From the NCBI GenBank assembly GCA_038874655.1, contig JAVZBY010000002.1, positions 1-42,227 on the forward strand: a DNA stretch of 42,227 bases, written 5' to 3'. The DNA comes from Candidatus Woesearchaeota archaeon. GTDB lineage: Archaea; Nanobdellota; Nanobdellia; Woesearchaeales; GW2011-AR15. Both the position numbers and the translations under genes were made by a program. A model generated the notes under the pieces. It made no database searches and was not told the origin of the DNA. It was given only the letters and a program-made list of their open reading frames with translations. The first letter of the stretch is position 1, and each line of letters opens with the position of its first letter. Below, piece after piece: positions 71-33,069 of this stretch.

Positions 71-636
71 TTTTTATCACCCCTCTTCTTCTTTAATGCC
101 CTTATATAAATTGTCCAGATTGTTTTATTATTACGATTTAATAGTTTAGCAATCTCTATTAATTTTAATCCTCTATCCTTAAAATATAAGCAAATGCTTT
201 CAAAGCATGTTAATTTTTTTTCAAATATACTAAGGGGGATAGAATATTTATAATTTATGTTATTAAAGAGGTTTTTTTTCTTTTTAACAGCATTATTATA
301 ACTGCTAATAACATTAGAATGACTTCTTTTAATTAATTTTGAAATTTCTTTAAAACTTAAGTTTAGATTTTCATGTAAATATTTCACAATTGCTTCTAAT
401 ATGCCTAAATCTTTCTCAAAAATAGAACAGGGAATTTGAATTTCTTTTTTTTCAAAATAGATTTTAATTTCATACTCTTGTAAACCATTCTTTTCTTTTA
501 TTTCATTTAATAATGAATTTAATACTTTACTAAATATTTGTCTTTCCTCATCCTTTAGAAATTGATCTATCTCTATAATTTGTTTCTTTTTATTTTCTGA
601 AGTTTCTTTTAAATTTTTTTTTAATTTTTTTTTCAA
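67..636 (-). CDS. Putative DNA-binding protein with two tandem sigma70-region-4-like HTH repeats
   Basis: Internal duplication IPCSIFEKDLGILEAIVKYLHE..LSFKEISKLIKRS / IPLSIFEKKLTCFESICLYFKD..LKLIEIAKLLNRN; start uncertain (TTG). Confidence 0.7.
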   Translation of the reverse strand: MKKKLKKNLKETSENKKKQIIEIDQFLKDEERQIFSKVLNSLLNEIKEKNGLQEYEIKIYFEKKEIQIPCSIFEKDLGILEAIVKYLHENLNLSFKEISKLIKRSHSNVISSYNNAVKKKKNLFNNINYKYSIPLSIFEKKLTCFESICLYFKDRGLKLIEIAKLLNRNNKTIWTIYIRALKKKRGDKK

Positions 637-2318: not shown

Positions 2319-2417
2319 AAATAAGAAATATCATAAACTTTTATAAACTTATTTTTATTTATGATAATAAAATAAACCAATTAATTAATTTATATTTTAA
2401 GATTAAAGGGTGAAAAA

Positions 2418-4902: not shown

Positions 4903-4959
4903 TTTTATAATTCTATTACATTACTTTATTTTTTAAAAACTTTTTATAAACTTAATTAT

Positions 4960-5032
4960 AGCCCTGTGGTGTAGCGGTCAATCATGCAAGGCTCTGGACC
5001 TTGAGACCCAGGTTCGAATCCTGGCAGGGCTA
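4960..5032 (+). tRNA. tRNA-Gln (anticodon CTG)
   Basis: Acceptor AGCCCTG/CAGGGCT, anticodon arm CAAGG-CTCTGGA-CCTTG, T-loop TTCGAAT; A1-U72 typical of archaeal tRNA-Gln; no encoded CCA. Confidence 0.97.
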
Positions 5033-5126
5033 TAAACAAGAAGAATAGCAATGACGAGATAGAAAATGCTAATGGAATAAACATTTTCTTTACCTAGTAT
5101 GGCTATTTTTTAATTATAATCTTTAA

Positions 5127-8109: not shown

Positions 8110-8121
8110 TTTTTCACCCCT

Positions 8122-29747: not shown

Positions 29748-29797
29748 ATCTCTTTTTTTAATATTAAAGTTGAAATATTCTAATTTAAATTTATAAA

Positions 29798-29870
29798 TAG
29801 CCCCGCCAGGATTCGAACCTGGGTCCCCTCCTCCAAAGGGAGAGATGATTGGCCGCTACACCACGGGGCT
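29798..29870 (-). tRNA. tRNA-Gln (anticodon TTG)
   Basis: Acceptor AGCCCCG/CGGGGCT, anticodon arm TCTCC-CTTTGGA-GGAGG, T-loop TTCGAAT. Confidence 0.96.
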
Positions 29871-29926
29871 ATAAACAAAAAATAAGAAAAATCAGTATCT
29901 TAAAAACTTTACTAAATATTTTTAAG

Positions 29927-30720: not shown

Positions 30721-31707
30721 TTATCCTTTTATTATTTTTCTTACTGATTCAATAATCTCTTCTGCAGTAATACTTGCCATACAAGGCGGAATTTGTGAAT
30801 TAGCATAAGCCTCATATATACATCCAGACTTGTCGTTTATCCTGATAATTTCTCTCCCAAATCTTTTTACATAATCTTCTATATTCCAGTATCCATGTAT
30901 GCCACAAAAACCAATTTCACAATTAAAAGTTGTTTTAATAACATGATTTCCAAAATAAGTAACAACTTCTGGATTAGAACTTCCAAAAACAACAACAACT
31001 TTGTTTTTATTACTGTTATTAGTTCCTATCTCATAAGGTGTACCTTGTAAAACACCATTTATCATATGTAAAAGCCCAGAATCAACACCAATAAAAGCAT
31101 CACAGGCATATAAAATAGCACATAATTCTCTTAAATTATCATATCTTGGCAATAAAAAAGGATGAGCAAAACCAGATATGCCCCTAATAACTTCATCTAA
31201 TGTTTTTTTAGGAAGACTTCTATTTTTTACTGATGCATATGGTGCTATCACAACTACAGGTAAATTATTGTTTTCTTTACTAATTTCATTAATCTTAATT
31301 TTTCCTTGCTCAACTTCCTCAGGTGTTAAAATAATTTTTACATCATCTCTTGAAGGTAGAATTTTTATTCCTGATTTTTCAAATAAAGTATAAGCCATCC
31401 ATTCACATAAATGACCAAACCTATCTTCTTCTCCAGTAAATTTTTTAGGAAGCATTGTTGTATGAGGAAGCCATTTTAAATAATCACTTAAATCAATAAC
31501 ATTTTTAGATGATTCCCTTAATTCCCCTATACCAGACAAGTGTTTTAATAAAAGTAATGCTTGGCGTGATGAGATTATATTTACTATGTAACCTATTTCA
31601 TTTAATCCTTGGACTAAAGAAGAAGCAATAATAGTATCTCCTATTGCACCAGTTAGTTTTAAAGTTAATTCTTGATTATTATCTGGCATAGAAAATATTA
31701 ATAACAT
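30721..31707 (-). CDS. Glycosyltransferase family 9 (heptosyltransferase-like)
   Basis: GAIGDTII, FIGVDSGLLH, VVVFGSS.P, C-terminal C...C...CMASIT. Confidence 0.78.
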   Translation of the reverse strand: MLLIFSMPDNNQELTLKLTGAIGDTIIASSLVQGLNEIGYIVNIISSRQALLLLKHLSGIGELRESSKNVIDLSDYLKWLPHTTMLPKKFTGEEDRFGHLCEWMAYTLFEKSGIKILPSRDDVKIILTPEEVEQGKIKINEISKENNNLPVVVIAPYASVKNRSLPKKTLDEVIRGISGFAHPFLLPRYDNLRELCAILYACDAFIGVDSGLLHMINGVLQGTPYEIGTNNSNKNKVVVVFGSSNPEVVTYFGNHVIKTTFNCEIGFCGIHGYWNIEDYVKRFGREIIRINDKSGCIYEAYANSQIPPCMASITAEEIIESVRKIIKG

Positions 31708-31795
31708 ATTTATATATAAAATTTACTACTTATTAGTAATATTATTTATATATAAACAAAAATCTACCTTTTTTAAAAGAAAATAAAAAATAAAA

Positions 31796-31884
31796 TGCCT
31801 CTATCCATAAAAGTTTTCGGGGGTGATTTACAGATAGAGGCAAGAAGGCACCACAAAGACCAAGGGTGATCTTGAAACTTGCCT
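31796..31884 (-). terminator. Structured ftsZ 3' UTR: two hairpins with AUCACCC loops followed by a U-rich tract
   Basis: TGCCTCTATC (31796-31805) / GATAGAGGCA (31833-31842); AGGCAAG (31838-31844) / CTTGCCT (31878-31884); CAAG-GGTGAT-CTTG. Confidence 0.6.
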
Positions 31885-31890
31885 AATTAA

Positions 31891-32913
31891 TTATTTTATT
31901 ATTTCAATACCCAAGTCATCTGAAAATTCTTTTACTTTCTGTGTTTTATCATTTTTTCCTAATATCCATGGACTCTTTACACCAGTTACAATAGTCATAA
32001 CTGTTACTTTTCCTTTCATGTCATCTAAAACTCTGGCTCCCCAAATTACATTTGCATCTTCATCTAAACTTTCTGTGACTAATTCACCAACTCTATTAAT
32101 TTCTTCTAATGTTAAATCAGGGCCACCTGTGACATGAATTAATGCACCAGTAGCACCTTCGTAATTAATATCTAATAATGGATTGCTCAAAGCACCTCTT
32201 ACAGCTTCTTCAATTCTATTATTTGTGTCAGAAGCACCTACACCAATAGCAGCAACACCACCATTAGTCATTATTGCTTTAACATCTGCATAATCCAAAT
32301 TTACTAAAGAAGGTAAGGCAATTGTTTCTACAATTCCTTTAATCATAGTTGCAATTAATTCATTTGCAACAGCAAAAGCTTGTCTTATAGGAAGATTGCC
32401 AGCAATTTGAACCAATCTATTATTATCAATAACAATAACAGTATCACAATTTTGTCTCAATTGATTTAAACCAAATTCTGCTTTATCAACTCTTGCTCTT
32501 TCAATTTTAAATGGCATTGTTACAGTTCCAATAACAATAGCACCCATGCTTTTAGCAACTTCAGCTATAATTGGAGCTGATCCTGTTCCAGTGCCACCTC
32601 CCATTCCAGCACATACAAAAACCATGTCTGCTCCTTTTAAAGCATCTTTAATTTCATTTAATTGTTCTCTAGCAGATTCAGCACCTTTTTCAGGAAAACC
32701 ACCACAACCTAATCCTCTTGTAGTGTCTTTTCCAATTAAGAATTTTCTATCAGCTTCAGTTATACTTAAATGCTGTTGATCTGTATTACAAGCAATAATC
32801 TCAGCACCTTTAATGCCTTTTTGGTAAAGCCAATTTACCATATTATTTCCAGCACCACCAGTGCCAATAACCTTTATAGTTGCTTGACTTGCCAAACCTT
32901 CAAATTCTTCCAT
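31891..32913 (-). CDS. ftsZ: Cell division protein FtsZ (FtsZ2-like)
   Basis: GGAGNN, NTD, AGMGGGTGTG, NLDYAD, IWGA, SPWILG tail; likely ATG at 32913 after AGGTGGGG (track GTG start 32922). Confidence 0.97.
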   Translation of the reverse strand: MEEFEGLASQATIKVIGTGGAGNNMVNWLYQKGIKGAEIIACNTDQQHLSITEADRKFLIGKDTTRGLGCGGFPEKGAESAREQLNEIKDALKGADMVFVCAGMGGGTGTGSAPIIAEVAKSMGAIVIGTVTMPFKIERARVDKAEFGLNQLRQNCDTVIVIDNNRLVQIAGNLPIRQAFAVANELIATMIKGIVETIALPSLVNLDYADVKAIMTNGGVAAIGVGASDTNNRIEEAVRGALSNPLLDINYEGATGALIHVTGGPDLTLEEINRVGELVTESLDEDANVIWGARVLDDMKGKVTVMTIVTGVKSPWILGKNDKTQKVKEFSDDLGIEIIK

Positions 32914-33069
32914 TGCCCCCACCTTGTCTTTGTGTTTATTTTTTATATTTTTTATGAGTATATTCTTTTTATATTTTTTAAAATATATCTTTTAAACTAT
33001 ATATAAAAATTTATATTTTACTCTAACAAAACCTTTATATACTTTTACGGAATATACTCTACTTAGAAA

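Follow-up and report, generated by a model that had tools for sequence, protein, structure and literature searches.

The untranslated 3′ region (3′ UTR) of the ftsZ gene of a Candidatus Woesearchaeota archaeon carries a real, new and conserved RNA element. The gene, which encodes the division protein FtsZ, lies on contig JAVZBY010000002.1 of assembly GCA_038874655.1, in a 42,227-nt stretch of DNA that is called the window below. The element folds into a defined structure, is conserved within the order Woesearchaeales, accompanies ftsZ, and is complementary to both the leader and the Shine-Dalgarno (SD) sequence of the same mRNA, with which it co-evolves. On balance, we lean towards reading it as a conserved 3′ UTR RNA that regulates ftsZ mRNA in cis, by targeting the ribosome-binding site of its own message. 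The gene and the parts of its 3′ region are:

31891-32913, minus strand: ftsZ coding sequence, placed by the open reading frame (ORF) list, its translation, and orthologues in 41 of 41 relatives.

31878-31884, minus strand: 5′ strand of the outer helix P1, AGGCAAG, which can pair with CUUGCCU at 31844-31838.

31849-31870, minus strand: domain 1, antisense to the ftsZ leader and SD, recognized by its stem variants and by own-versus-cross complementarity.

31838-31846, minus strand: linker UUCUUGCCU, the partner of P1, in which GCCU is invariant and U3, U6, and U7 are >92% conserved.

31796-31842, minus strand: hairpin 2 (P3), with a stem of 31842-31827 and 31811-31796 in the window, supported by the minimum free energy (MFE) fold, covariation, and R1, a covariance model of this hairpin.

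31817-31827, minus strand: apical loop (loop 2) AUCACCCCCGA, with invariant CACCCCC at 31825-31819.

31781-31795, minus strand: U tract UUUUAUUUUUUAUUU, the likely end of the transcript in this genome.

The ftsZ stop codon, UAA, occupies 31893-31891 on the minus strand. In the ORF list, the gene spans 31891-32922 (minus strand) and begins at a GTG at 32922 that falls inside the SD GGUGGGGG; the true start is likely the ATG at 32913-32911, which is preceded by GGUGGGGG in the upstream sequence GGUGGGGGCAAUG. Following the stop codon, the minus strand reads ...AGGCAAG UUUCAAG AUCACC CUUGGUCUUUGU GGUG CCUUCUUG CCUCUAUC UGUAAAUCACCCCCGAAAACUUUUAUG GAUAGAGGCA UUUUAUUUUUU. The spacer between ftsZ and the next minus-strand gene (30721-31707) is 183 nt long and very A+T-rich, except for a G+C island at ~31796-31885, where the G+C fraction reaches 0.35-0.39 (80-nt windows), compared to 0.11-0.18 in flanking intergenic DNA. 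The G+C content of the whole genome is 24.5% (1.26 Mb assembly, 17 contigs). When folded, the ftsZ-sense strand of the island (31885-31796) gave -33.2 kcal/mol, with a z-score of -5.10 and none of 200 shuffled sequences folding as well; the values for the opposite, plus, strand were -25.0 kcal/mol, -2.14, and 9 of 200.

The part of the element with the firmest support is hairpin 2. An initial annotation of this DNA, made by a model from the letters alone, had described two small hairpins on the ftsZ sense strand, CAAG-AUCACC-CUUG and a second one followed by a U tract. The letters of both are present as described, and the second hairpin is now backed by covariation. In the window it consists of UGCCUCUAUC...GAUAGAGGCA, followed by the U tract; its conserved core is GCCUCUAUC...GAUAGAGGC in the family to which the window belongs and mostly GCCUUCAU...AUGAAGGC elsewhere. 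Compensatory changes are found in 6 of 10 stem pairs, and 98.4% of the cells of the stem are paired in an alignment of 27 sequences (97.7% in one of 82). None of 500 shuffles matched its covariation score, and controls in which the stem was slid along the alignment were only 35-47% paired. The G.U pairs of the stem are confined to the sense strand. Whilst the stem covaries, the loop does not change: the consensus of loop 2 is A-Y-CACCCCC-R-A, with CACCCCC identical in all 82 aligned copies, an A two positions 3′ of it in 82/82, and an A two positions 5′ of it in 81/82. Since R1 favors such matches, a fairer figure comes from 30 loci that were fetched by FtsZ protein alone, of which 27 have an exact CACCCCC, two a near variant, and one neither. 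The annotation had suggested a covariation analysis of ftsZ 3′ regions, and had taken loops that vary on conserved stems as the sign of a plain terminator; what we see is the opposite, an invariant loop on a covarying stem.

In the window's own genome, R1 matches 31792-31848 with a score of 73.6 bits (E = 6e-19), and the next best match has an E-value of 0.066. Of 151 genomes drawn from the order, which record titles give as Woesearchaeales (class Nanoarchaeia), 106 had a match, or 104 of 149 if two unpublished genomes (G139 and G150) are set aside, and the matches listed for a phylum-wide sample all fall in the same order. The association with ftsZ is tight. It lies just upstream, on the same strand, in all 29 best-match loci examined, and 29 of the 30 loci that were retrieved by protein have the element right after the stop codon of ftsZ. 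A pattern scan of named records listed 80 loci, of which 48 (Pseudomonas and others) lack R1 and are due to chance; in each of the 32 R1-positive loci, ftsZ is again just upstream on the same strand, at a distance of 15-136 nt. Element and ftsZ stop codon overlap in some genomes, for example in UGAUCACC, and in others they abut, which leaves no room for a separate promoter and makes an own promoter unlikely. With a covarying helix, a conserved context, and mostly a single copy per genome, R1 has the properties of a structured RNA family. A scan of the whole window against Rfam release 15 at gathering thresholds returned two tRNAs only and no family for the element, and the top match of a permissive scan of 31700-31960 scored 20.1 bits where the cut-off was 100 (E = 0.21). 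Searched by BLAST against the genome it comes from, the element retrieved itself, plus one 32-nt match of 85% identity on contig C4. The same genome has two ftsZ paralogues, C1:24543-25559 (plus strand) and C4:30120-31130 (minus strand), with 81% and 55% identity; both have ordinary SDs (GGGUGA and GGGUGGAGGUG) and bare U-tract ends, and are without the element.

The gene 3′ of the element varies among relatives. In the window it is the minus-strand gene at 30721-31707, which encodes 328 amino acids, and in many relatives it starts MTLYMIGLGLNDEKDI, which we take to be a diphthine-synthase-like protein. Given these differing downstream genes, the element belongs with ftsZ and not with the next gene. 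Two tandem copies of hairpin 2, ~100 nt apart and both with CACCCCC, occur in 4 of 81 loci (L088, L099, L130, and L158).

Between the stop codon and hairpin 2 lies domain 1. Its parts are AU-CACC, of which 31868-31865 forms the 5′ strand of stem P2, loop 1 (CUUGGUCUUUGU, 31864-31853), and GGUG (31852-31849). P2 is thus (U)CACC/GGUG(A) in the window, and its variants elsewhere include CAAC/GUUG, CAACC/GGUUG, CACCC/GGGUG, and AUCAAC/GUUGAU versus UUCAAC/GUUGAA. Within the stem, the loop is long and conserved (CCUUAGUCUUUGUGU) in some families, and short and unrelated in others; the stem often begins at the ftsZ stop codon, as in the overlapping example given above. As domain 1 does not align in register with MAFFT, P2 was counted by a script whose regular expression also returned a few spurious hairpins (L181, L190, and L142). 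The CAAG-AUCACC-CUUG hairpin of the annotation fared worse than its companion: the MFE fold does not use it, and in most relatives its 3′ half reads, by eye, CUUA, CGAA, CGUA, or CAUA. As AUCACC provides the 5′ strand of P2, the element displays one loop resembling the anti-SD, not two; the claim of two such loops holds for loop 2 and fails for AUCACC.

The linker UUCUUGCC sits between the first small hairpin and hairpin 2. Two alternative folds had been noted here, and both are possible: UGCCU (31842-31838) can pair with AGGCA at 31800-31796, at the base of hairpin 2, or with AGGCA at 31884-31880, within P1. In a further alternative, the MFE fold pairs the AGGCA of P1 with UGCCU at 31850-31846. 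An outer helix in which (UU)CUUGCC pairs with GGCAAG(AA), or with the region of the stop codon, is at least 7 bp long in 30 of 78 relatives, compared to 10 of 78 when the target is shuffled, a difference that is suggestive, not strong, support for such a helix. The base of hairpin 2 is invariant, with G8, C9, C10, and U11 opposite A59, G60, G61, and C62 in 81-82 of 82 copies.

The other partner in the proposed interaction is the 5′ end of the ftsZ mRNA, for which we list:

32916-32923, minus strand: SD region GGUGGGGG with its run of five Gs (G5), complementary to the CCCCC of loop 2 and to that of domain 1.

32926-32935, minus strand: leader motif ACACAAAGAC, complementary to loop 1 (GUCUUUGUG) and conserved in the leaders of the window's family (f1).

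32956-32963, minus strand: conserved block ATATACTC, seen by eye in an upstream alignment.

The SD of ftsZ is unusual in being a run of four to six Gs (G4-6), typically A/U-GGGGG-U, located 6-10 nt 5′ of the AUG. A run of at least four Gs precedes ftsZ in 70 of 72 genomes, and one of at least five in 51 of 72, while a run of at least four precedes only 8 of 231 neighboring ORFs of at least 150 amino acids at the same loci, by a rule for these controls (ATGs in frame and no more than 80 nt from the first start codon) that is similar, not identical, to the one used for ftsZ. In the window's genome, just 16 genes have a G5 run in the SD position, including those for TBP, PCNA, and an RPA-like protein; the common SDs are GGGGUGA, GGGUGAU, and GAGGUG. 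The initial annotation had named SD sites upstream of five genes in the window, and GGGTGA at 77-82 (minus strand), 2408-2413 (plus strand), and 8114-8119 (minus strand) fits three of those five starts. It had also given the archaeal 16S rRNA 3′ end as GGAUCACCUCCU. We did not find the 16S gene in the 17 contigs of this assembly and used relatives in its place; in four of them the end has exactly that canonical sequence, with CCUCC. The 16S end is CCUCC, and the GGGGGU of ftsZ is consequently a better match to the 3′ UTR loop than to the ribosome: it pairs with 16S through a G.U wobble, and with the CCCCC of the 3′ UTR perfectly. The loop is indeed a look-alike of the anti-SD, as had been proposed, since loop 2 (AUCACCCCC) shares 8 of 9 letters with the 16S end (AUCACCUCC). 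The single difference, a U-to-C change, mirrors the A-to-G change in the SD (GGGGG versus GGAGG), and the loop therefore tracks the SD and not the rRNA.

Further upstream, the leader motif ACACAAAGAC(UAAGG), or ACCACAAAG, is found in the window's family and several others, and corresponds, as reverse complement, to loop 1 with its flanks. Variants of the leader are mostly, by eye, A-to-G changes opposite U (ACACAAGGAC, ACACGAAGAC, and ACGCAAAGAC), in which a G.U pair is kept. A TATA-like box (TATTTAAA or TATATAAA) flanked by the inverted repeat AAACTAG...CTAGTTT lies ~45-75 nt 5′ of ACACAAAGAC in, for example, L010, L011, L015, L016, and L023, and at ~32960-33010 (minus strand) in the window, with ATATACTC following ~25 nt later. 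The box and its repeat have the look of a promoter joined to an operator, at which a DNA-binding protein could regulate ftsZ, and ATATACTC is possibly the region of the transcription start.

The leader and domain 1 of the window are predicted to form a duplex of -20.7 kcal/mol. Across the 19 genomes that have both parts, the own leader/domain 1 duplexes range from -20 to -27 kcal/mol, with z-scores of -2.4 to -4.9 in all 19; in genomes without domain 1, the z-scores of the leader duplex are only -1.8 to +1.1. When each of 38 genomes was paired with its own partner or with those of the others, the mean energy was -22.8 kcal/mol for own pairs and -21.3 kcal/mol for cross-genome pairs, a difference matched in 0 of 5000 permutations. 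Shared ancestry alone should not yield such an advantage of own over cross pairs, which speaks for co-evolution of the two ends. Individual cases include a 15-nt match between leader and 3′ UTR in L100, matches of 8 and 10 nt in L094, and CACUCCUUU with AAAGGAG in L099.

Similar complementarity extends to other orders of the class, from which we fetched 34 ftsZ1 loci and tested the 32 with an FtsZ identity of at least 60%. In many of them, a C-rich motif in the 3′ UTR follows the type of the gene's own SD, with GGAGG matched by CCUCC, and GGGGG by CCCCC. Examples of 3′ UTR and SD pairs are GGGAGGUGC (also given as GGAGGUGC) with GCACCUCC, GAGGUGCA with UGCACCUC, AAAGGAGGG with CCCUCCUUU, GGGGGUGC with GCACCCCC, and AAAAGGGGGU with ACCCCCUUUU. 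The longest Watson-Crick match averaged 6.78 for own and 6.16 for cross pairs (39 of 10,000 permutations), and the duplex energy -14.0 versus -12.7 (27 of 10,000). This covariation of SD type and 3′ UTR motif across the class is, in our opinion, the strongest argument that the motif may be under selection to pair with its own SD, and it would favor such selection over mimicry of rRNA or binding of a protein.

How might the element act? In the cis-regulatory reading that we favor, C-rich anti-SD segments would pair with the G-run SD of the same ftsZ mRNA. One such segment, loop 2, would be on display; many families would have a second, the 5′ strand of P2 with its long loop, which is hidden in P2 beside a loop able to nucleate on the ftsZ-specific leader motif ACACAAAGAC. 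The two ends that pair could belong to a single molecule or to different ftsZ mRNAs, or a processed 3′ fragment could be the partner; were different molecules involved, repression would rise with the level of ftsZ mRNA. Occlusion of the leader and SD would be expected to hinder binding of the 30S subunit, and so to tune or limit FtsZ synthesis in a manner akin to that of icaR mRNA, discussed below. P1 and P2 touch the stop codon, and we speculate that terminating ribosomes could remodel the element. The annotation had proposed a functional RNA that could pair in trans with the ribosome-binding sites of other genes: the functional RNA on the ftsZ strand survives our analysis, while the partner that is best supported is the leader and SD of ftsZ itself, and not other genes.

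Several observations weigh against this view. No R1 match was found in 45 of the 151 genomes of the order. Ranked by energy of the duplex with domain 1, the ftsZ leader is only 205th among all 40-nt windows of its genome, and for that reason we rely on the comparative evidence and not on energy. The match between loop 2 and the SD comprises only 6-8 bp, and as both are nearly invariant within the order, there is no covariation between them there. Leader and 3′ UTR have two sites each, and these run in parallel order, which precludes a single continuous duplex. The G-run counts for ftsZ were obtained with a rule that looked through 80 nt and took whichever ATG had the best G run, and several starts that were misassigned by rule in the 32-locus test were kept in. 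Nor are G5 SDs specific to ftsZ, as they also precede PCNA (28/30) and TBP (~21-25/30). The model accounts only in part for the invariant GCCU/AGGC base and the UUCUUG linker, at which a protein could bind. Finally, the transcription start was placed by eye; if it were downstream of ACACAAAGAC, domain 1 would be left without a partner.

The invariant bases are the starting point of the rival explanation that survives best, although we consider it unlikely: that the element serves protein binding, stability, or 3′-end formation, and that it matches the SD by coincidence. The invariant loop together with the GCCU/AGGC base would then be recognized by a protein that acts, for instance, in termination, decay, or localization. 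Invariance of bases within a stem (81-82 of 82 copies), a conserved single-stranded UUCUUG of a kind that is typical of protein sites, placement at the 3′ end with a U tract in 45 of 80 relatives, and the shortness of the loop/SD match are all as this explanation would have it. It leaves unexplained, however, the co-evolution of domain 1 with the leader, the switch from CCCCC to CCUCC along with the gene's own SD in other orders, and the retention of a G5 SD by ftsZ against the 16S sequence.

Somewhat more doubtful still is a role as a trans regulator, in which the C5 loop, as part of the mRNA or of a fragment of ~60-100 nt, would pair with the G5 sites of PCNA and TBP mRNAs. Such a regulator would couple division with replication and transcription, and is compatible with the cis model. 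Loop 2 is invariant and unpaired, and a small, conserved class of genes with G5 SDs exists (the 16 in the window's genome). Orthologues of PCNA (C5:18532-19278 in that genome) have a run of at least five Gs in 28 of 30 cases, and those of TBP (C1:223762-224319) have at least four in 21 of 30 by rule, or ~21-25 of 30 by eye if TTG and GTG starts are allowed. G5 runs are rare elsewhere (4 of 29 for aCPSF1, and the 8 of 231 neighboring ORFs), and G5 matches the CCUCC of 16S worse than GGAGG would, so other selection is possible. In family f1, the SD of TBP frequently reads CGGGGGUG and is thereby complementary over 8 nt to the f1 loop CACCCCCG; we regard this as a weak hint, seen by eye in one lineage. 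Set against this, domain 1 is specific for the ftsZ leader, the motif tracks the own SD of ftsZ in other orders, complementarity to PCNA and TBP is mostly 5-7 nt (5-8 nt overall), and G5 may merely denote a class of strong SDs. We also considered aCPSF1 as a conserved member of the G5 class and rejected it; the gene has G5 in the window's genome, and this is kept in only the 4 of 29 relatives already mentioned. By eye, PCNA 3′ regions have no comparable C-rich element.

A more ambitious scheme would make the ftsZ 3′ UTR the center of a network of SD and anti-SD mimics. Terminating ribosomes would open the UCACC/GGUGA stem, in which a strand resembling an anti-SD faces one resembling an SD and which often overlaps the stop codon, so that the element senses how frequently ftsZ is translated, and the freed C-rich segments would then mask the G5 site of ftsZ and, in trans, those of PCNA and TBP, the few other genes in which such a site is kept across the order. 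We think this scheme improbable. If it held, division would be tied to replication and transcription by a feedback made of RNA alone in the reduced genomes of DPANN archaea, and complementarity between 3′ UTR and own SD would be an ancestral trait of ftsZ1 across the Nanoarchaeia.

It is very unlikely that hairpin 2 is a plain terminator of ftsZ with no other role. Archaeal transcripts often end at U tracts, and in the window the stem passes directly into one. Yet its loop is constant where that of a terminator would be free to vary; 35 of 80 relatives have no U tract of at least four within 14 nt of the hairpin (the other 45 do), and have instead a separate G+C hairpin and U tract further downstream; the two paralogues end at bare U tracts without a hairpin; and some genomes carry tandem copies of hairpin 2. 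Some of the downstream hairpins resemble one another: a near-identical G+C hairpin, CUCUUCUCCGGGAGGGG(G/A)AGAGA, with a U tract lies 3′ of hairpin 2 in L010, L012, L016, and L024, and one like CUCUUCUCCGGGAGGGG is also present in L014 and L017, so that it is found in more than one genus. This hairpin may serve as a conserved terminator or as an additional element.

Least credible of all is a feature of the plus strand, an antisense RNA or a small gene that uses the sites GGGGGTGAT and GGGTGATC, even though that strand reads like a leader with SDs: its sole ORF here (31795-31869, 24 amino acids) begins 5′ of either site, GGGTGATC is followed by no more than a TTG frame of four codons, the fold is poorer (z-score of -2.14 versus -5.10), the G.U pairs of the stem would become A.C, R1 scores 16.9 bits compared to 73.6 on the minus strand, and the plus-strand GGGGTGAT sites, for which the annotation had allowed a downstream ORF, serve none.

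The cis-regulatory reading has its closest precedent in the icaR mRNA of Staphylococcus aureus, in which a UCCCCUG motif in the 3′ UTR is reported to pair with the mRNA's own SD, block initiation, and create a site for RNase III (PMC3868564). Both 3′ UTRs have a C-rich motif (UCCCCUG in icaR, CACCCCC in ftsZ) with complementarity to the mRNA's own SD, here as GGGGG(U) with (A)CCCCC in the order, and the effect that we propose for ftsZ would likewise be a block of translation initiation. The icaR case is bacterial and was shown experimentally, whereas the ftsZ element is archaeal, its gene encodes a division protein, and the case for it is built from sequence, covariation, and co-evolution. The icaR duplex is a substrate of RNase III, and nothing comparable is known for ftsZ. 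Unlike icaR, the motif of the ftsZ element lies in the loop of a covarying hairpin, is found in more than 100 genomes of an order, and is joined by a second module that is antisense to the leader. By the logic of its sequence, the element is thus icaR-like, but as a different RNA in a different domain.

In Bacillus subtilis, pairing between the 5′ and 3′ UTRs of hbs mRNA reportedly controls ribonuclease access and stability (PMC5737220). From that description, and not from sequence, the likeness is that two ends of one mRNA pair and alter its fate; the difference is that the effect described for hbs is upon ribonuclease access and stability. For archaea, a study in haloarchaea describes a functional interplay of the two UTRs, 5′ and 3′, for translational control (PMC2636863). 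It offers an archaeal precedent for joint control of translation by both UTRs, albeit in a different phylum. We know of no defined base-paired motif or masking of an SD in the haloarchaeal case. Haloferax reportedly does largely without SDs (PMC3986360).

In the Firmicutes, trans-acting small RNAs with C-rich loops, such as RsaE, use these unpaired loops to target G-rich ribosome-binding sites. Each RNA of that type has a gene to itself, more than one C-rich loop, and numerous targets. The ftsZ element, by contrast, is fused to a stop codon, displays one C-rich loop, and has its own mRNA as its best-supported target. Its likeness to the 16S 3′ end, for its part, is limited to the nine letters of which eight are shared. 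We found no description of the element in the literature on ftsZ, UTRs, anti-Shine-Dalgarno sequences, archaea, DPANN, or Woesearchaeota, supplements not being covered, and a search for terms in a preprint on Nanobdellota found mention of neither ftsZ nor SD. As far as our searches show, masking of an mRNA's own SD from its 3′ end has been demonstrated in very few bacterial mRNAs, and the literature searched contains no archaeal case.

Almost nothing is known about the control of division in uncultured DPANN archaea, or about their regulatory RNAs. The element is a defined and widely conserved RNA on a central division gene, with a proposed mechanism of self-masking that can be tested; it also offers an explanation for the odd, conserved G5 SD of ftsZ. 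The covariation of SD and 3′ UTR across the class makes the idea accessible to simple compensatory mutants in vitro. For annotators, R1 provides a new RNA family that marks the ftsZ1 orthologue.

A few further observations concern loop 1 and the R1-bearing records. A 12-nt loop-1 pattern gave 35 matches in 41 genomes, compared to 15 for a reversed control. We considered whether loop 1 belongs to a dispersed repeat family and rejected the idea; matches outside ftsZ 3′ UTRs are mostly in coding sequence and lack any extended likeness. One site on another contig of the window's genome stands out. At C4:76995-77027 (L002 1501-1533) there is a perfect 16-nt match to loop 1, CCCUUGGUCUUUGUGU on the minus strand and its complement ACACAAAGACCAAGGG on the plus strand, and this was the top non-self result of a genome-wide scan for duplexes with domain 1. 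It adjoins a small hairpin and a U/A run, in a 335-nt spacer between a metallophosphoesterase gene (minus strand) and S27e-eIF2alpha-Nop10 (plus strand). Judged by its letters, the site could be either a second target or decoy of ftsZ loop 1, or a second copy of the loop; a similar site was not seen among those loop-1 pattern matches of relatives that were examined.

The titles of R1-positive records are mostly Candidatus Woesearchaeota, Nanoarchaeota, or Nanoarchaeia. A Woesearchaeales-type ftsZ (74-90% identity) together with R1 also occurs on contigs titled uncultured Methanosarcinales and, in one instance, Alphaproteobacteria bacterium (L121, L126, L127, L131, L137, L142, L152, L156, L158, L175, L181, and L186); these Methanosarcinales and Alphaproteobacteria labels are probably wrong. 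Lastly, the two tRNAs of the window are both tRNA-Gln genes, at 4959-5033 (plus strand) and 29797-29871 (minus strand), with the anticodons CTG and TTG.

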